The position numbers and the translations under genes are program-made. Shown here piece after piece: positions 4,806 to 12,633 of a stretch of 64,000 bases of DNA. Numbering within the stretch: position 1 is the stretch's first letter; the number at the start of each line of letters is the position of its first letter. Origin of the DNA: Candidatus Xenobia bacterium (GTDB taxonomy: Bacteria; Vulcanimicrobiota; Xenobia; Xenobiales; QWHO01); the NCBI GenBank assembly GCA_045863235.1, contig BTUM01000012.1, positions 60,594-124,593 on the forward strand, written 5' to 3'. The notes under the pieces are model-generated. The model did no database searches. It was not told where the DNA came from and saw only the letters and a list, made by a program, of their open reading frames with translations.

Positions 4806-6029
4806 TCAGACCAGGGCGGGCACCAGGGCCACGTCGCTGCCCACCGACTTCTTGCGAGCCGGGTCGAAGAATGGCTTGGGGACGACTCTGGCGCTGACGT
4901 GGCGCCGGTCGGTGTCGATCAGGGCCTCCATCTTCATCACCGTGCCCAGCTTGGCGTAGCGGCTCTGCACGGTGGCCAGGGCGATGTAGCGCTTGAGCAG
5001 GGGCGACCAGACGCCGCTGGTGGCATAGCCCACCTGGCGGTGCGTCAGACTGTCGAAAAGCGGCACCACGCCGCGCCAGGTGGTGCAGGGCAGGTCCAGG
5101 GGCAGGCCGCGCGCGTCAAAGAGCTTCTCCAGCTCTTCCAGGGAGACATCCAGGCCCACCAGGCTCCAGGCCGAGCCCTGACGCTTCTCCTTCTCCAGGG
5201 CCGCCTTGCCGATGAAGGGCCCTTTGTCCATGTGCACCGTCCAGCCCAGCCCGATCTCATAGGGAGTGGACATCTGATCGTCGGTCACACAGTAGGTGCA
5301 GCTCCTGAAGTCGACGTCCACCATGATGAAGCCGGCCTCGACGCGCACCATGTCCAGCGCCAGGATGCCGGCGGGCAGGATGTTGTAATCCTTGCCGGCA
5401 GCCCACACGGCGTCATAAAGCTTGTTGGCGTGCTCGGCCTCCACCCACAGCTCGTAGCCCAGGTCACCGGTATAGCCGGTACGCGAGATGACCACGTCCA
5501 AGCCATCCACCTTCGCCTGGATCTGGTGGAAGTAGCGCAACTTGTCCACGTCGGCAAGCTGCGAGAGGATGGCCCGCGAGCGCGGACCTTGCAGGGCCAG
5601 TGCACCCGTCTGCACGGTGATGTCCTGCACCTCGACGTCCAGGCGCTGAGCGTTCTGCAGCAGCCAGTAGTAGCTCGGATGAGCCGAGAACAGCCGGAAG
5701 CGCTCGGGCGAGAATCGAGCCACGGTGCCATCGTCGAGCACTTTGCCGCGCTCGTCGGTCCAGCAGCTGTAGGCCACCTGGTTGTCTTTCATGCGGCCCA
5801 CGTCGCGGCACAGCACGCGATTCATCAGCTTGAGAGCGTCCTTGCCCCGGATCTCGTACTTGAAGAGAGGCGAGACATCGAGCAGTCCGGCCGATTCGCG
5901 GAAAGCGTAGTACTCCTGATCGTGGTTGAACTGGTAGCGCTCGACGGCGTAGTAGCCAGCCCACTCCTTCCACTTCAGGCTGGTGCAAAGAGCCGAGGTC
6001 CGGTCATGAAAGGGGCTTTTTATGGCCAT
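4806..6029 (-). CDS. Aminomethyltransferase (GcvT-family folate-binding protein)
   Basis: RESAGLLDVS, GKVLDDG, LALQGPRSR, ISRTGYTGDLGYEL, RVEAG, KGPFIGK, SPLLK..IALA, PFFDP; start placed at MAIKSPF. Confidence 0.9.
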   Translation of the reverse strand: MAIKSPFHDRTSALCTSLKWKEWAGYYAVERYQFNHDQEYYAFRESAGLLDVSPLFKYEIRGKDALKLMNRVLCRDVGRMKDNQVAYSCWTDERGKVLDDGTVARFSPERFRLFSAHPSYYWLLQNAQRLDVEVQDITVQTGALALQGPRSRAILSQLADVDKLRYFHQIQAKVDGLDVVISRTGYTGDLGYELWVEAEHANKLYDAVWAAGKDYNILPAGILALDMVRVEAGFIMVDVDFRSCTYCVTDDQMSTPYEIGLGWTVHMDKGPFIGKAALEKEKRQGSAWSLVGLDVSLEELEKLFDARGLPLDLPCTTWRGVVPLFDSLTHRQVGYATSGVWSPLLKRYIALATVQSRYAKLGTVMKMEALIDTDRRHVSARVVPKPFFDPARKKSVGSDVALVPALV

Positions 6030-7629
6030 TGTTGCGCGCCTGCTTTCCTTTCTCTTTCTTGGGTTTCTTGACCAGCGAGGCGACCAGGGCACCCACCCCC
6101 ATCAGGGCCACCCCGGTGCCCACGGCCAGGCCCGCCCCCACGGGAGTGGAGACGGCCGATTTGGCCCGGTCGAGATTGCTGGCCATGATCTCGCGGGCCG
6201 CATTGGCCCCGGCCGCCCCCGTGCCCACCCCGCCGGGATGACAACCCGAGCCGCACAAAAAGAGCCGCTCGACCGGCGAGGAGTAGTCGGCGTAGCCTGG
6301 CAGCGGGCGGCAGAAGTGCAACTGGTGCAGGTTGTGCTCGCCCTGGTGCAGGTGCCCGCCGCTGAGGCCATACTCGGCCTGGAAGTCTGAGGGAGTCTTG
6401 ACGACCACCTCTTGCAGGCACTCTCTAAGGTCCGGCAGGTAGGCCTCGAGTGAGCTCAGCACGCGCTCCTTGACATCCTCGCTGCAGCCGAAGGGCACGA
6501 ACTTGACCCGCAAGTCGAGCTGGCCTGGCTCGCTGAAGCGTCCCTCCAGCACCGGGCGCCCCGACAGCTTGCCGTACTTCACGTCGTCATAGGCGCGCTC
6601 GAGGGCCTCGATATCGGGCCCGAAATGGATGCGGCCTTTGAGGTAGGGGGCCGGGTCCTGCTCGCCCAGACAGGCAAAGCGCGGGGCACGGCTCAACTTC
6701 AGCCGCACCAGGGCGGTGGACCCGCGCATCTTCAGGTTGGCGACGTTGCGCACGAACTCGGGGCCGAGCTCGAGCGGAGGAACCAGCTCGAGGAACGTGC
6801 GCTTGGGATCGAGCGCCGAGACCACTCGCGTGGCCCGCACCACGGTGCCGTCCTTGAGCCGCACTCCCGTGCAGCGGCCCACCTCCACCAGGATGGACTC
6901 AAGCTCTTGCCCGAAGCGGATCTCCACCCCGCGCCGGGTGCCGGCCGCCACCAGGTCTTCCACCACCGAGCCAACGGCCACGCGCGGTCCGGCCAGCTGG
7001 TGGTAGAGCAGGGTGGCCGCCGTGCCGGGCGAGCGCGGGCCTGCAAAACGGCCTTCAAATGCCTGCATGGCCAGCGCACCAAGAATGGCCGGATGCTCGA
7101 ACCACTCTTCCAGGAAGTCCTGTACCGCCATCGGCCCCAGGCGCATCAGGCCCAGCGCGTCGGCCTGGCTCAGGTTCTTGAAGCGCAGGCCGATGTTGGC
7201 CGCGTCCACCAGCGAGGCCCAGTGCTCGGCGTCCGGGCCCACCGGAGTCTGGTCGAGCAGCGGCTCGGCGAAAGCGATCATTCGGTCCATGAAGCCCTTA
7301 TAGCCAGCGTAGCGCTGGGCGTCGGACTGGCTCAGCCGGGCCAGCTCCTGGCGGGTCTTCTCCACGTCTTGCCAGAGGGTAAAGTGGTTGCCATCGCTCA
7401 GCGGGCAGAAGGCCACCGGGTCGAGCGGCGCCTCATCGAGCAAGCCCAGCTCGCGGCGCATGCGCGGGCGCAGCGGGGTGCGCCAGGGCAACCCGCCCTC
7501 GCGGGCGAACACGCCGCCTGCGCTGTCGCGCCTCTCGAGGATGACGACCTTCTGGCCCTGATTGGCCAGGCTGGCCGCGCAGGCCAGCGCGTTGGGGTCG
7601 GACCCCAGAATGAGGGTATCGATGTCCAT
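6004..7629 (-). CDS. Phytoene-dehydrogenase-like (CrtI/PYROXD2-like) oxidoreductase with degenerate FAD motif and C-terminal membrane anchor
   Basis: Paralog of the upstream gene (GPRSPGTA, ERAYDD.KYG, LCGSGCHPGG); GSDPNAL replaces GGGHNGL; hydrophobic then Lys-rich C-terminus. Confidence 0.85.
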   Translation of the reverse strand: MDIDTLILGSDPNALACAASLANQGQKVVILERRDSAGGVFAREGGLPWRTPLRPRMRRELGLLDEAPLDPVAFCPLSDGNHFTLWQDVEKTRQELARLSQSDAQRYAGYKGFMDRMIAFAEPLLDQTPVGPDAEHWASLVDAANIGLRFKNLSQADALGLMRLGPMAVQDFLEEWFEHPAILGALAMQAFEGRFAGPRSPGTAATLLYHQLAGPRVAVGSVVEDLVAAGTRRGVEIRFGQELESILVEVGRCTGVRLKDGTVVRATRVVSALDPKRTFLELVPPLELGPEFVRNVANLKMRGSTALVRLKLSRAPRFACLGEQDPAPYLKGRIHFGPDIEALERAYDDVKYGKLSGRPVLEGRFSEPGQLDLRVKFVPFGCSEDVKERVLSSLEAYLPDLRECLQEVVVKTPSDFQAEYGLSGGHLHQGEHNLHQLHFCRPLPGYADYSSPVERLFLCGSGCHPGGVGTGAAGANAAREIMASNLDRAKSAVSTPVGAGLAVGTGVALMGVGALVASLVKKPKKEKGKQARNNGHKKPLS

Positions 7630-7638
7630 GCTGGCCTC

Positions 7639-9240
7639 CTACCGATGCGCCGGGCGCTTCTGCTTGAGATCTTTGAGCACTTCGCGGGCCCCGATCTGGC
7701 CCGGCGCTCCCATGATGCCGCCCCCGGGATGCACTCCCGAGCCGCACTGATAAAGACCCTGCAGGGGGGTGCGGTAGCGCGCCCAGGCGGCGATGGGACG
7801 CAGGAAGAACATCTGCTCGAGCGAGAGCTCGCCGTGAAAGATGTTACCTTCGGTGATCCCGAACTCGCGCTCCATGTCCAGGGGAGTGAGCACCTGGCGG
7901 AACAGGATCGACTCTTTGAGGCCCGGGATGTACTCGGCCAGCGTATCCACCACCGCATCGCCAAAGCTCTCGCGCTCGTCGTCCCAGTTCTTGCCTTTGA
8001 GCTGATAAGGAGCGTACTGCACGAAACACGAGATGACGTGCTTTCCGGGCGGCGCCATGGAGGGGTCGGAGACGGTGGGCACCACCACGTTGATGAAGGG
8101 ACGCTGGCTAAAATTGCCATACTTGGCGTCGTCGTAGGCCCGCTCGAGGTACTCCACCGAGGGAGCGATGGAGATGTCCCCCTTGAGGTGCTTGCCCATG
8201 CCGGGCAGGCACTTGAACTCGGGCAGCCGGTCGACGGCCATGTTCACCTTGCCCGAGGAGCCGCGGAACTTGTAGTGCTTCAGGCTGTCGAGCAAGCGCG
8301 GGTCGAGCTGGCCCTCGGGTACCAGCTTCTTGAAGGTGACAAACGGGTCGGCACTGCTGAGCACCGCCCTTGCCCCGATCTCCTCGCCGTTCTCGAGCAC
8401 CACGCCCTGGACCTGATCGCCCTTGAGCAGCAAGTGCTTGACCCCCGCCTCGGTGCGAATCTCGGCGCCGAAGGCCTGAGCCGCCCGGGCGATGGAGAGC
8501 GAGATCCCGCCCGTGCCTCCCACCGGGAGGCCCCAGGCGCGAAAAACACCGTCGATCTCGCCCATGTAGTGGTGCAAGAGCACGTAGGCCGTGCCCGGCG
8601 AGCGCACGCCCAGAAAAGTGCCGATGATGCCGCTGACGGACATGGAAGCGATCAGCTCGGGGCTCTCGAACCAGTCTTCCAGATAGTCGACAGCGCTCAT
8701 GGTGAAGAGCTTGATCACGTCGTAACGAAGCTCGGGGTCCATGGTGCGGAAAGCCTTGCCCAGTTCGAGCAACTTGAGGAGCTCGTTGGGGTTCCAGCTG
8801 TCCATGTCGGGGGGCACCATGGAGAGGATGGGCTTCACGAAGCGGCAGATGCGGGTCATCTGGCGGGCAAAACGGGGCAGAACCTCGGCGTCACGGCGCG
8901 AGAACTGGGCCACATTGCGGTAGCTCTCCATGGAGTCGTCGGTGCGCAAGATGTAGCGCTTGCCGTCCGGCTGGGGACAGAAGGTGGAGGGCAGGGGCAA
9001 GATCTCCAGGCCGTGGCGGGGCAGCTCGAGGTCGCGGATGATCTCGGGCCTGAGCAGGCTCACCACATAGGAGCAGACCGAGAACTTGAAGCCCGGATAG
9101 ATCTCTTCCGTCACCGAGCAGCCGCCGAGCACGTAGCGCTTCTCGCAGACCAGCACCTTCAGCCCGGCTTTGGCCAGGTAGCCGGCAGCCACCAGTCCGT
9201 TGTGGCCGCCTCCGACAATGATGGCATCATAGGTTTTCAT
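7639..9240 (-). CDS. Phytoene-dehydrogenase-like FAD-dependent oxidoreductase (PYROXD2-like)
   Basis: YDAIIVGGGHNGLVAAGYLAKAG.KV.V.E, LGG, TP.D.E..FG...GNIFHG, LYQCGSG.HPGGGI.GAPG; RBS GGAGG before the ATG at 9240. Confidence 0.92.
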   Translation of the reverse strand: MKTYDAIIVGGGHNGLVAAGYLAKAGLKVLVCEKRYVLGGCSVTEEIYPGFKFSVCSYVVSLLRPEIIRDLELPRHGLEILPLPSTFCPQPDGKRYILRTDDSMESYRNVAQFSRRDAEVLPRFARQMTRICRFVKPILSMVPPDMDSWNPNELLKLLELGKAFRTMDPELRYDVIKLFTMSAVDYLEDWFESPELIASMSVSGIIGTFLGVRSPGTAYVLLHHYMGEIDGVFRAWGLPVGGTGGISLSIARAAQAFGAEIRTEAGVKHLLLKGDQVQGVVLENGEEIGARAVLSSADPFVTFKKLVPEGQLDPRLLDSLKHYKFRGSSGKVNMAVDRLPEFKCLPGMGKHLKGDISIAPSVEYLERAYDDAKYGNFSQRPFINVVVPTVSDPSMAPPGKHVISCFVQYAPYQLKGKNWDDERESFGDAVVDTLAEYIPGLKESILFRQVLTPLDMEREFGITEGNIFHGELSLEQMFFLRPIAAWARYRTPLQGLYQCGSGVHPGGGIMGAPGQIGAREVLKDLKQKRPAHR

Positions 9241-9497
9241 GGCATGTTCCTCCGGGAGAACTGCCATGTTGCGGGATTGGAGGGGCGGGATCCTGCTTTA
9301 GGAGGTTTCAAGCCTCGCGAGACTCAATGTAGAGCCCGATTCGACCGGCCCCGCCTCGATTCGGCCATTCGGGCCGGAAACCCGTCCGCGCGCCGGGAGA
9401 CGGAAGGGTCAGGATAGTCGAGCGATGCCTCCATCACCAGTTCCAACAAACAAAAAAAACACATCCTTATTGATTAAATAATTAACAGGAGAATTTC

Positions 9498-9588
9498 TGG
9501 TGAGTGCCCCCAGAATCGAACTGGGCAATGCGACACAATATCGCTCCCGGCTTACAACCGGGCGGGACTCCATTGTCCCATGACACCC
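9498..9588 (-). tRNA. tRNA-Tyr(GTA), non-canonical, 91 nt, CCA encoded
   Basis: Reverse strand folds as acceptor GGGTGTC/GGCACTC, D arm GGGAC-AATGGA-GTCCC, anticodon arm CCCGG-TTGTAAG-CCGGG, variable arm GCGATA-TTG-TGTCGC, T arm CCCAG-TTCGATT-CTGGG, then A-CCA. Confidence 0.8.
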
Positions 9589-9684
9589 ATTTGGGCCGGA
9601 GTTACCCGGCCTGCCGAAGCGAGGCTTCGACCCATTCAGATCTCTCTGAATGCTCCTTACAGTAGCCAGGGGCCTTGACCGGTC

Positions 9685-9763
9685 TGGTCGGAGCGGCCGG
9701 ATTCGAACCGGCGACCTCTTGCTCCCAAGGCAAGCGCGCTAAGCCAGGCTGCGCCACGCTCCG
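9685..9763 (-). tRNA. tRNA-Pro(TGG)
   Basis: CGGAGCGTGGCGCAGCCTGGCTTAGCGCG CTTGC-CTTGGGA-GCAAG AGGTC GCCGG-TTCGAAT-CCGGC CGCTCCG A CCA; canonical cloverleaf. Confidence 0.97.
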
Positions 9764-9778
9764 AAGAAACGGACCGGC

Positions 9779-9814
9779 GCGGTCACCGGGGACAACCGAC
9801 TCCCCGGTGACCGC
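9779..9814 (-). terminator. 14-bp perfect hairpin between leader ORF 2 and tRNA-Pro (attenuator 2 candidate)
   Basis: GCGGTCACCGGGGA / TCCCCGGTGACCGC with an 8-nt loop; only a weak, offset U-tract (GTTTCTT). Confidence 0.5.
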
Positions 9815-9856
9815 CAGCCCTGAACGGCCGGACACCGGGCGAGCGGTATCAAGCCG

Positions 9857-10048
9857 TTACCGAATGTCAGCCCCTCCCGGGACGGGGAAGGTGCCGGGGG
9901 GACGCGGACCGGACCGGAGCTGGTAGCGGTCAGCCCCGTGGCCGGGGGACGGACCCTCCTCGGGTCGCCCGCATGCGTCGCTCATCCCGGCCGCCCACGG
10001 TCGGGGCTGCTCGGTCAGGTGCAAATTCTTCGTTCTCGTGGTCGCCAT
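9857..10048 (-). CDS. Putative leader peptide 2 (63 aa, 10 Pro, contains RPPG)
   Basis: Purine-rich RBS AGAGGGAGAG 7 nt before the ATG; lies between two terminator-like hairpins. Confidence 0.5.
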   Translation of the reverse strand: MATTRTKNLHLTEQPRPWAAGMSDACGRPEEGPSPGHGADRYQLRSGPRPPGTFPVPGGADIR

Positions 10049-10066
10049 CGGTCGACTCTCCCTCTG

Positions 10067-10107
10067 AAAACAACTTCGCCCACCCGGGGCCTTCCGCGGG
10101 TGGGCGA
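10067..10107 (-). terminator. Intrinsic terminator of attenuator 1
   Basis: 11-bp stem TCGCCCACCCG/CGGGTGGGCGA followed on the minus strand by AGTTGTTTT. Confidence 0.7.
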
Positions 10108-10132
10108 GCTTGGACGCATCTCCTGAGACAGG

Positions 10133-10240
10133 CTATGCGAGAGGCTCACCCTCCCAAATTCCGGGGAACGGCCGGTTGGCCGGGCTCAAATCGCCCCAGC
10201 CTTGATACTGTGTGGTGGTATGACACGTGGACATCTTCAT
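10133..10240 (-). CDS. Putative leader peptide 1 (35 aa, MKMSTCHTTTQYQGWGDLSPANRPFPGIWEGEPLA)
   Basis: Starts about 12 nt after the predicted TSS, stops 25 nt before the terminator and contains an antiterminator strand at 10144-10155. Confidence 0.55.
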   Translation of the reverse strand: MKMSTCHTTTQYQGWGDLSPANRPFPGIWEGEPLA

Positions 10241-10258
10241 GTTCTTCGACCTGAAGTC

Positions 10259-10287
10259 AGGATATCCGAAACGGATCATTTTGTCAA
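10259..10287 (-). promoter_or_regulatory. Sigma70-type promoter for the leader/tRNA operon
   Basis: TTGACA (10287-10282), 17-nt spacer, TATCCT (10264-10259) on the minus strand. Confidence 0.75.
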
Positions 10288-10330
10288 GGTCACGACAGAT
10301 TCATCCTGGGGAGATTTGCTCCAGGCCAAT

Positions 10331-10498
10331 TGCCTGAGTCGATGGAGAGAGCGGGAGGTTCATCATCTCTTCATCTTGGGAGGAGCGGATCTTCACCAGC
10401 CCCTGCTAGGCTGGGCGTGCCAGAAAGTCAGGCCGGCCCCCTGTCCGGTCTGCGAGGATGGTGGTTCCAAACGCCAGCCATGTTTTGCCTCTCGGGCA
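10331..10498 (+). ncRNA. ssrS: Probable 6S RNA (SsrS)
   Basis: About 170 nt closed by TGCCTGAG/CTCGGGCA; TTGGGAG on the 5' side and CTGCGAG..GGTTCCAAA on the 3' side resemble Bacillota-type 6S RNAs; followed by a terminator. Confidence 0.55.
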
Positions 10499-10504
10499 CC
10501 CCGT

Positions 10505-10539
10505 CTCCCCCGGACGGTTCCCGGGAGGCTTTCTTTTTT
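10505..10539 (+). terminator. Intrinsic terminator after the putative 6S RNA
   Basis: GC stem CTCCC..CGG / CCGGGAG followed by TTTCTTTTTT. Confidence 0.6.
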
Positions 10540-10562
10540 GGATCGCGCACCGCAGTACGTGC

Positions 10563-11456
10563 TCACTCGCCGCCGGAGCTCTGAGGAGGGGAAGCCACCG
10601 CCCCTTTGTGCTGTCGGATGAAGAGCACCGGACAGTGCGCATGGTGCACGACGCGCTCGGCCACGCTGCCCATGATCGCGTGGGCAATCCCCGAATAACC
10701 GTGGGTCGCCATCACGATCAGATCCACTTCCGACTCGGCCACCTGGAGAATTTGCTCGGCCGGGTCTCCGATGCACACCTGGGTATAGGCGCGAATCCCT
10801 CGAGCTTTGAGCTTGTCGGCCTGCCCGCTCAGGTACTGCTCGGTCACGGCGGGCAGTCTCTGGGCCCACTTCTCTTCGGTCTGGAAGCAAAGCCAGGTGG
10901 GATAGTCCACCACCCCGAGCAGGCACAGATGAGCCTGATCGCGCTCGGCCAGGTAGGCCGAGGCATCGAGCGCCCGCTCGGAGAGCGGGCTCCGGTCCAG
11001 CGGCAACAGAATGCGCCGGAAGGGCGTGCTGTGCTCCTCACCGGGCCGGTGCTCCCCCGGGCGGACGATCATCACCGGGCAGTCGGCCTCGCGCATCACC
11101 CGGGCGGTCACGCCGCCCAGCAGCCACCGACCCGTCCCCCGGCGCCCGTGCGAACTCATGACGATCAGGTCGGCAGCGCAGCTTTCGGCCAGTTGCACGA
11201 TCTCCTCGGCCGGAATCCCGGAGGCAGCCCGAACGCTGATCGGTACGCCCATCTTCTCAAAGGCCTCCCGAAGCTTGCCCAGATGCTCCTCGAGCCCCTT
11301 GCGGGCCTGACCAGGCTCAGCCTCCTCCTCGTACACCTTCTCGGCCACCCCGGCCAGGACGATCTCCGAGTGATACAGGCGCGCCATCCTCAGGGCGTAA
11401 GGCAGGGCGGCGTGACTCTCGCCCGAGCCATCGATGGGGACCAGGATTCTGCTCAT
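10563..11456 (-). CDS. Tandem-domain universal stress protein
   Basis: Two USP domains (RILVPIDGS..S, DLIVMSSHGR.G..RWLLG; RRILLPLDRS, DLIVMATHG.SG....MGSVAERVV..A.CPVL); RBS AAGGAG. Confidence 0.93.
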   Translation of the reverse strand: MSRILVPIDGSGESHAALPYALRMARLYHSEIVLAGVAEKVYEEEAEPGQARKGLEEHLGKLREAFEKMGVPISVRAASGIPAEEIVQLAESCAADLIVMSSHGRRGTGRWLLGGVTARVMREADCPVMIVRPGEHRPGEEHSTPFRRILLPLDRSPLSERALDASAYLAERDQAHLCLLGVVDYPTWLCFQTEEKWAQRLPAVTEQYLSGQADKLKARGIRAYTQVCIGDPAEQILQVAESEVDLIVMATHGYSGIAHAIMGSVAERVVHHAHCPVLFIRQHKGAVASPPQSSGGE

Positions 11457-11575
11457 GGTTGACTCCTTGTGCGGTGTGCCTTGCCTCCATGATTCCGCAA
11501 GAGCGCACAGGGTCATATGATGCAGGTCATCTTTTCGAGTGCCGCAAAGTTCTCGAGTTGCAGCCGGCCTGACGG

Positions 11576-12493
11576 TTAGCCTTCGAGAAAGGCCTCGAGT
11601 TGCTGGAGCGTCATTCCCGAGCCGAGGCGCCGAATGACCTCCAGGGTGCGCTCGGAATCGAGCCGGGAGAAGCGTTCGGCCAGGGCAGGAGCAGGAACGC
11701 CGAACTGAGACTCGGCAAGAGCCAGGGCAGCGAGCTGAAGGCCCTCCTGGCGGCCTTCCTGGCGGCCTTCCTGACGGCCTTCCGCTCGGCCACGCTCTTC
11801 CCAGGGGTTGATGAACTCAAGCACGGCTTCACGATCCTCCCTGTCCATCCGGTTTAGTTCTGCGTGATAAACCGCCTCCTCCTCTGGAGTGAGGCGCAGG
11901 GACTGGCCCACGAAGCTGGCCAGGAAGCTCTGATCGCGGGGAGTGAGGTACTTCATCCTGGAGATCAAGGACAGGCATGCCAGGAAGACCCAGGGGCGCT
12001 CGCGGTTCTTCATGCGCATCCTGCTCATCAGGGCTGCCGCGACCGGGTTGTCCACCCGGTAGCTCTGCCAGGGCAGTCGGCTCAATTGGATGACCCGGTA
12101 GCGAAACACCAGGGGCTCAAGGTCGGGAAAGGCGATCCTCAACTCCTCTGGCTGAGGGCTCTGAGGGTAGCGAAACGAAAACAGCGCAATCGGATAAACG
12201 TCGCACCCGTAACGGTCGAAGAGCCGGGAGAAGTAGGCGAACATACGCCGAGCAAAATCGGGCTCGTTTCGCGACTGGTGCTCGACGTGCACCAGATAGA
12301 GCCGGTCCGTGCCGGCCACCCTCAACCGGGCCACCACGTCCGCTTCGCGCCGTTTCTCCTCGAGAAAGGCTTCCTTATCGAGAAAGATCAGCGAGTCGCG
12401 CTCGGCCTCCCGCGCCGTCTCCGGGGCAAAGAGCTCGAAGAACTCAAAGAAGAAGTGGCTGAGAAGCTGCTTGAAAAGTCGGTCGTGCTGCAT
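11576..12493 (-). CDS. Rpn-family PD-(D/E)XK nuclease ('putative transposase') with EG-repeat linker
   Basis: HDRLFKQLL, EADVV, VHVEHQS, F..RMF.YF.RL, NPVAAAL, GRAEGRQEGRQEGRQEG. Confidence 0.88.
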   Translation of the reverse strand: MQHDRLFKQLLSHFFFEFFELFAPETAREAERDSLIFLDKEAFLEEKRREADVVARLRVAGTDRLYLVHVEHQSRNEPDFARRMFAYFSRLFDRYGCDVYPIALFSFRYPQSPQPEELRIAFPDLEPLVFRYRVIQLSRLPWQSYRVDNPVAAALMSRMRMKNRERPWVFLACLSLISRMKYLTPRDQSFLASFVGQSLRLTPEEEAVYHAELNRMDREDREAVLEFINPWEERGRAEGRQEGRQEGRQEGLQLAALALAESQFGVPAPALAERFSRLDSERTLEVIRRLGSGMTLQQLEAFLEG

Positions 12494-12633
12494 GGGCTCG
12501 ACTGTCGCTCCCCTTCGGAAGTCTGCAAGCTGACAGTCTGTCGATGCGTGGCCCAGCTCGGTGAAGGGCATTCAATTCTCGGAGGGGAGATCCTGCCGGG
12601 GAATCCCCCAACATACCCCGAAGTCCCCTCGCC

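Follow-up and report, generated by a model that had tools for sequence, protein, structure and literature searches.

A predicted translation-stress attenuator in front of two spare tRNA genes in a Xenobia bacterium

The supply of tRNAs is usually described as being set at the promoter, and the locus considered here raises the question of whether ribosomes may set it as well. On the minus strand of the window (the whole 64,000-nt stretch of Candidatus Xenobia DNA that was analysed), a promoter is followed by a short leader frame (ORF1), a terminator-like stem (terminator 1), a second short frame (ORF2), a long hairpin (hairpin 2) and two tRNA genes (Table 1). The sequence-only reading of this DNA took the arrangement for two tandem attenuators, both opened by stalled ribosomes. 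We consider it fairly likely that one whiB7-type ribosome-mediated transcription attenuator gates the two spare tRNA genes. The unit is real and conserved, and is probably a single-stage translation-stress switch, with tRNA-Pro and the tyrosine-like tRNA probably made mainly when ribosomes struggle.

Table 1. Elements of the unit in order of transcription, with positions in the window
Feature	Position	Strand	Remark
Sigma-70-type promoter, TTGACA-17-TATCCT	10259..10287	-	Predicted start ~10252
Leader ORF1, 35 aa; codons 2-25 form the near-pan-amino-acid sensing stretch	10133..10240	-	Open in 4/4 copies
Antiterminator strand, leader codons 29-33	10144..10155	-	Predicted pairing with terminator 5' arm
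Small hairpin spanning and following the leader stop, within the antiterminator	10115..10139	-	One compensatory change
Terminator 1, 11-bp stem and imperfect U-tract	10067..10109	-	Region z -3.65
Purine-rich ribosome-binding site of ORF2	10056..10064	-	Resembles the paralog's site
ORF2, 63 aa, Pro-rich, open	9857..10048	-	Frameshift-scrambled paralog of the 66-aa gene, G000:C47
Hairpin over the ORF2 stop codon	9823..9858	-	Paralog homologue lies 35-70 nt further from the stop
Hairpin 2, 20 bp, -40.5 kcal/mol	9771..9820	-	Invariant in 4/4 copies
Extra tRNA-Pro(UGG), canonical fold, G37	9685..9763	-	ARAGORN and Rfam tRNA model
Spacer with three hairpins	9589..9684	-	Fold z -2.5; last hairpin in 4/4 copies
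Non-canonical tRNA-Tyr-like RNA, 7/5 branch	9498..9588	-	ARAGORN tRNA-Tyr(GTA); cloverleaf z -3.7

The elements named in the earlier reading could be located. The promoter is in place at 10287-10259, as are the 35-aa frame (ATG at 10240) and the 63-aa frame (10048-9857). The stem of the proposed 11-bp terminator lies at 10107-10076. Its U-tract is imperfect, with 6 U in 9 nt; both are preserved in all four copies of the unit, although a simple terminator scan did not list this site. For the 14-bp hairpin claimed at 9814-9779, the two arms make a perfect inverted repeat, and pairing continues outward to give 20 bp (9820-9771). ARAGORN calls both tRNA genes, tRNA-Pro(TGG) at 9763-9685 and tRNA-Tyr(GTA) at 9588-9498, and the label "atypical" for the latter holds because the Rfam tRNA model finds only tRNA-Pro. 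Between 8000 and 12000, the promoter is the sole promoter-like site (0.4 expected from shuffles), the same scan giving no further one between terminator 1 and the tRNAs, and its -35 hexamer and spacing are preserved in all four copies. It had also been claimed that the unit holds no recognisable protein gene. Neither ORF1 nor ORF2, nor the 66-aa paralog of ORF2, gave a useful E-value in Pfam or NCBIfam, but ORF2 has a protein-coding homologue in another part of the genome and is therefore not an anonymous leader. Rfam returned no family in the leader, ORF2 or the spacer (best non-tRNA score 23.8 bits, against a cut-off of 52).

The search of related genomes that had been proposed as a check found the leader-hairpin-tRNA unit in three of four congeners, at 95%, 92% and 79% identity; the genome of the congener without it is 65% complete. 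Both frames are open in all four copies (the host genome, G000, and three congeners), and sequence comparison indicates that the conservation of the unit exceeds chance. The copies are not independent, since three of the four share 92-95% identity, and the terminator 1 stem is invariant in all four, which leaves no covariation evidence for it within these copies. In one congener, G004, the unit is retained despite different flanking genes, lacks the middle part of the spacer and carries a third tRNA, Gly(GCC), behind the other two. When 401 genomes of the phylum were searched with the 3' part of the unit, it turned up in this genus only; six weak matches of 22-36 nt were also obtained, five of them from outside the order and one from family f2. 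Three loci from a metagenome scan are near-copies of the congeners G001 and G003 and not independent, and a viral scan with the T-arm motif gave 17 matches, all of them short and within unrelated tRNAs or tRNA-like sequences. Downstream of the unit (4806-9267) lie a GcvT-like gene and two flavoprotein genes, with an AT-rich stretch (9497-9440) between them and the second, odd tRNA. Upstream (10563-12571) are a tandem-domain Usp gene and an Rpn/YhgA-like transposase gene; the Usp gene is likewise upstream in G001, where a 393-aa gene intervenes, and in G003.

For the first leader, the attenuation logic of the earlier reading is supported computationally by a predicted antiterminator, a predicted dependence on ribosome position, a near-pan-amino-acid content and the non-housekeeping character of the tRNAs. 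The sensing stretch of 24-25 codons holds 17, 17, 16 and 19 distinct residues in the four copies, where proteome windows average 12 (P 0.004, 0.004, 0.024 and <0.0001), by a test chosen after the whiB7 uORF literature was known; diversity is highest in the most distant copy, at 19 of the 20 amino acids. The ORF1 copies differ by one in-frame 3-nt insertion, and their pN/pS is 0.39-0.71 (small counts). In G004 (locus L007) only 9 nt separate the leader start codon from the -10 hexamer, which makes this copy probably near-leaderless. Control codons of the trp/his type were considered and rejected, as codons read by the payload tRNAs make up 3 of 24 (p 0.32, no enrichment). A Pro-specific first leader was rejected as well, and a queuosine (NAU-codon) sensor was dropped because NAU codons are, by eye, common in other leaders too.

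The antiterminator strand can form 11 of 12 base pairs with the terminator 5' arm (duplex about -21 kcal/mol), an energy that 4, 3, 2 and 1 of 500 codon shuffles matched in the four copies. In predicted folds of nascent RNA ending before the 3' arm, with upstream RNA blocked, the terminator arm is paired upstream at 0.84-0.89 in all four copies when the ribosome is absent or at codon 12 or 24, and at 0.07-0.12 in all four when it is at the ORF1 stop. A ribosome beyond about codon 25 is predicted to cover the antiterminator strand, and the small hairpin at the leader stop is a possible pause site. Two further predictions count against the switch. In the full-length RNA at equilibrium, the terminator forms at 0.48, 0.95, 0.89 and 0.97 even without a ribosome, so only a kinetic switch could work, and with the upstream leader left free and the ribosome at the stop, the arm re-pairs elsewhere at 0.48, 0.77, 0.82 and 0.00. 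Stage 1 has the three sequence-testable features of the whiB7 class, namely a short conserved ORF, an intrinsic terminator and, in predicted folding, a ribosome-occluded antiterminator, and its broad amino-acid content is the design of a general translation-stress sensor.

In the mechanism we favour, RNA polymerase would start near 10252, and the terminator 5' arm would be captured by leader codons 29-33 while the 3' arm has yet to be made. In healthy translation the ribosome would reach the stop, the terminator would form and the RNA would end near 10067; with a ribosome delayed anywhere in codons 2-24, the antiterminator would stay and the polymerase would continue. Since the sensing stretch samples 16-19 amino acids, the switch should respond to nearly every translation stress, be it too little charged tRNA, damage to tRNA or a drug that acts on the ribosome. 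The output would be an extra tRNA-Pro(UGG) together with a tyrosine-like RNA, which may be charged but decode poorly, or may be a decoy.

Evidence at the RNA level comes from assembled metatranscriptome contigs of four runs from four studies, out of 24 listed; such contigs give no strand, level or ends, and DNA carry-over is possible. Near-identical contigs (1-2 differences) cover 9684-10245, 9769-10237, 9708-10225 and 9802-10186. In all four runs, none with a known stress, they cross terminator 1, so that read-through occurs, and in two of the four they span hairpin 2 into tRNA-Pro, one of these contigs changing to housekeeping-like sequence where the tRNA end is shared. No run covers 10246-10598, and one contig ends at 10245 with an adapter tail; the contig ends are a weak hint of the promoter and of one transcript. 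The odd tRNA appears, in part, in the contigs of only one run, and its absence from contigs proves nothing.

The unit tRNA-Pro is a distinct isodecoder, with G26, C32 and A44 in all four copies. The housekeeping Pro(TGG) type (A26, U32, G44) was found at all 17 other loci examined, each time heading a Pro-Arg-His operon with, by eye, a promoter-like site directly upstream and no leader. The host genome has a separate tRNA-Pro(TGG) on contig C13 and a separate tRNA-Tyr(GTA) on C103, and the unit tRNAs are extras beyond the housekeeping set. For E. coli, PMC8384417 describes the UGG isoacceptor as essential and as the one that relies most on m1G37; the unit copy retains G37.

The second tRNA departs from the canonical form in its 5-bp D-stem and 5-bp variable stem, and has A8 and C14 in all four copies in place of U8 and A14. 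Its 7-bp acceptor and 5-bp T-stem are fully paired in every copy; 99% of cells are paired, with three compensatory pairs, all from G004. The identity set of bacterial tRNA-Tyr consists of G1-C72, A73, a GUA anticodon and a long variable arm. All of these are present in three of the four copies, while that of G003 deviates, with a GCA anticodon and U37. Drift is seen in the anticodon loop, which reads GCAU in G003 and has a different base at position 38 in each of the four copies, and one copy lacks CCA. A degenerate GUA relative occurs in another family (G015, L103:1500-1900), where a YrlA-like module with its own promoter-like site is followed by a long-armed tRNA-like RNA that ARAGORN missed. 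We read the odd tRNA as a tyrosine-type RNA that would be under structural selection and weak decoding selection.

Sister loci in the genome were reached by searching with hairpin 2 and terminator 1; at these, related leaders stand before a Ro60-like operon (C47) and before a second spare-tRNA array (C5). C47 has a promoter, a leader and a terminator like those of the unit, and behind them tRNA-like modules, the 66-aa gene and a 478-aa gene, whose product has a predicted Ro60/TROVE-like fold (TM 0.77). L031 (G000:C47:900-3432) and L068-L084 are attenuator-led operons of this kind, with the 66-aa protein, repeated tRNA-/Y-like modules and a Ro60/TROVE-like vWA protein; the type is widespread in the class, and its proteins have close relatives in cyanobacteria. 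The 66-aa protein itself has at least 435 relatives, many of them cyanobacterial, and of 44 genomes from the class, 18 have its gene. Foldseek gave nothing at E 0.001 or better for it, the top rows being mostly ubiquitin-like at TM ~0.4-0.5, and we call it beta-grasp-like on its strand-helix order and these weak matches. More unannotated tRNA-like modules occur in the host genome (G000:C23:89230-89660, C34:51900-52060 and C67:150-290); short motifs of the C47 modules recur in those on C34 and C67, and the C23 cluster lies behind a 243-aa ORF.

The C5 array (L095, G000:C5:130578-131132, minus strand) has a promoter, a 23-codon Leu/Arg/Gln leader and a terminator, followed by tRNA-Leu(CAG, with a short variable arm), Gln(CUG), Arg(ACG) and Leu(GAG), all with A37. 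Further loci of this type are L093, L094, L024 and L096. Eleven of the first 12 leader codons are CNN (p 3e-5), and eight of the CNN codons are read by the four tRNAs behind the leader (p 7e-4). Whereas these tRNAs have A37, all 12 housekeeping tRNAs with G36 have G37, a count from which the window copy, a degenerate module and two spurious calls were excluded. In the G004 array of this type, the leader has His codons and a tRNA-His (G37) replaces Gln. This suggests that the C5 array may be a candidate set of m1G37-independent backup tRNAs under a codon-matched attenuator.

Nineteen leaders, picked by eye, were folded: those of 11 of 24 66-aa-gene loci, of four of five spare-tRNA arrays and of the four unit copies. 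L085-L090 and L073, in which no leader was seen by eye, were left out of the folding. Nascent pairing between terminator arm and ORF was predicted at 0.55-0.98 in 18 of the 19, with differing stem sequences. At most 12 of 500 shuffles reached the duplex in nine leaders; in the other ten, 22-343 of 500 did so, and there the duplex does not clearly beat shuffles, which counts against the switch.

ORF2 is colinear with the 66-aa gene and of equal length to the stop. The two proteins match at 33% identity over 45 aa (BLASTP, E 8e-6), and a profile match was weak (probability 12.5%). At the DNA level the alignment scores 101 in the host genome and 118 in G004, against at most 96 and 94, respectively, in 2000 codon shuffles each. 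Offsetting one- and two-base gaps in that alignment imply that parts of ORF2 are read in another frame. AlphaFold gives ORF2 no fold (pLDDT 58, from a 4-row alignment) and its paralog a confident one (pLDDT 93, 24 rows), and pN/pS is 0.45-0.74 for ORF2 against 0.15-0.23 for the paralog. The start codon, ribosome-binding site and open frame are all preserved, and in a crude neutral simulation the chance of the frame staying open was ~0.03. Proline makes up 10 of 62 residues (p 0.004), and the frame contains two CCC-C sites, where a +1 frameshift sensor is conceivable; a long stem over ORF2 shows no compensatory change and several breaks in G004. Most likely, the unit arose when the 5' part of an operon for the beta-grasp-like protein, Y-like RNAs and the Ro60-like protein was copied, and ORF2 and hairpin 2 would be relics of the copied part. 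ORF2 is probably still translated, which would protect the RNA against Rho or determine how hairpin 2 folds; as Rho is present, shielding is the simpler reason for keeping the frame. The rho match (G000:C2:171497-173710) is a 772-aa frame against a 415-position model, which implies a long insertion or extension.

Hairpin 2 ends 6-9 nt short of tRNA-Pro. With the hairpin that precedes it, it is also found behind the paralog in four genomes, mid-operon and with no U-tract there, and a genome scan gave six loci and no new lineage. Ribosomes at the stop codon cause read-through in tnaC and speFL, and hairpin 2, if it switches at all, would likewise open as the ribosome reaches the ORF2 stop, with a polarity opposite to that of stage 1. 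On this possible but rather doubtful account, stage 1 would be unchanged and two gates of opposite sign would act as a band-pass, hairpin 2 being a factor-assisted terminator or pause and the tRNAs being made when translation is slowed but not dead. In predicted folds of all four copies, the base of hairpin 2 is ~0.97-0.99 closed with the ribosome upstream and opens (0.30 or less) once the front edge of the ribosome is 9-15 nt past the ORF2 stop. No such stop-dependent opening was predicted at any of the four paralog loci, and the overlap of the stop codon with the linker hairpin is unique to the unit copies. Shuffled linkers reproduced the switch in 2 of 300 and 1 of 300 cases, by a criterion picked post hoc, once the result was seen, and against a null that is generous because shuffling the linker destroys the inherited hairpin; under a looser test, 25-34 of 100 shuffles open the base. 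The open frame of a scrambled protein also speaks for such a gate, and were it real, a dead protein gene would be kept open only as a ribosome track. Against it, the U-tract is poor (U at 5 of 7 positions in the host copy and at 4 in two others, with almost none in G004), the alternative fold retains the long stem three bases from the U-tract, and RNA contigs run through hairpin 2 in half of the runs. It is similarly doubtful that such a two-gate sensor with tRNA output is a node of an attenuator-wired backup network with the C5 A37-tRNA locus and the Ro60-like RNA-repair operon.

A second alternative, which we regard as improbable, is a decaying duplicate, in which a leaky or unregulated terminator would give a constant low level of tRNA-Pro and the odd tRNA would be a pseudogene. 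The scrambling of ORF2, the drifting anticodon loop and the copy without CCA, the read-through RNA in every run and the restriction of the unit to one genus all fit decay. However, the antiterminator, terminator, hairpin 2 and tRNA stems have been kept or compensated over a synonymous divergence of ~0.4, leader diversity is at its highest in the most distant copy, and the unit persists in G004 in another gene neighbourhood.

The weakest account, and a highly improbable one, is that of the sequence-only reading, in which stalling opens both gates: the conserved ribosome-binding site and the Pro-rich ORF2, open in all four copies with invariant PRPW and RPPG motifs, are in its favour, but ORF2 is a scrambled paralog whose invariant blocks can pair mutually, its pairing with the hairpin 2 arm is inconsistent across copies (0.07, 0.52, 0.03 and 0.70), an ORF2-borne antiterminator did no better than shuffles (21-99 of 500), the one ribosome-dependent refolding that emerged runs in the opposite direction, and hairpin 2 is predicted to close (0.97-0.99) when the ribosome is held at RPPG, so that no second stall-opened attenuator follows.

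For the preferred reading, a single stall-opened gate at the first leader, the meaning would be that ribosomes could request their own adaptors, with no regulator protein, through a translation-coupled attenuator before tRNA genes. The genome would have three sister switches of one architecture with different sensing stretches, broad in the unit and of Leu/Arg/Gln codons at C5. ORF2 shows, in addition, that the reading frame of a pseudogene can outlive its protein.

Several known systems can be set beside the unit. Ro60/Y RNA (YrlA) loci, as described in the cited part of PMC4201824, are the comparison for the paralogous operon, which resembles them in its Ro60-like fold and tRNA-like modules, and the sister loci gave weak YrlA matches (37.6 and 30.8 bits, against a cut-off of 69). 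Unlike those loci, the unit in the window has no Ro60 gene, and YrlA (RF02553) has no match in 9250-10600 at E up to 10. The odd tRNA resembles allo-tRNAs in its long variable arm, lengthened D-stem, variable anticodon and polycistronic setting. Allo-tRNAs have, in the cited part of their description, an 8/4 or 9/3 branch and G73 or U73, and irregular tRNAs in polycistrons are there said to be in some cases charged yet unused in translation (PMC5389517); assignment to that class is ruled out by the 7/5 branch, A73 and 6-nt D-loop. A 2026 preprint on tRNA mimics, in its accessible part, names other families.

The cryptic trn operon of Anabaena PCC 7120 (the L-array) likewise consists of spare tRNAs beyond the housekeeping set. 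As far as the cited parts of PMC8421152 and PMC10272220 describe it, it comprises 26 genes on a megaplasmid and is repressed by TrcR at the promoter, and its tRNAs, which share their regulation with RNA-repair genes, have a link to translational stress. The unit differs in having two chromosomal genes (three in G004) behind a leader and terminator, and the string "attenuat" has 0 occurrences in PMC8421152. Spare stress-induced tRNAs are thus under repressor control in Anabaena (PMC8421152, PMC10272220) and under activator control in Streptomyces, and in the open-licence literature, with subscription papers mostly outside the search, we found no description of attenuator-gated tRNA genes. The closest likeness is to the whiB7/wblC attenuator, which also has a leader ORF before an intrinsic terminator and a leader that samples nearly all amino acids. 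In the cited sections of PMC10274678 and PMC7157823, efficient translation of that uORF leads to termination and stalling to the antiterminator, the whiB7 uORF of M. smegmatis codes for all amino acids but Cys, and six tRNA genes are induced indirectly, via WblC. The whiB7/wblC leader gates a transcription factor, whereas the present unit has tRNA genes directly behind the terminator; on our models, such direct gating would be its departure from a class that it otherwise appears to work alike.
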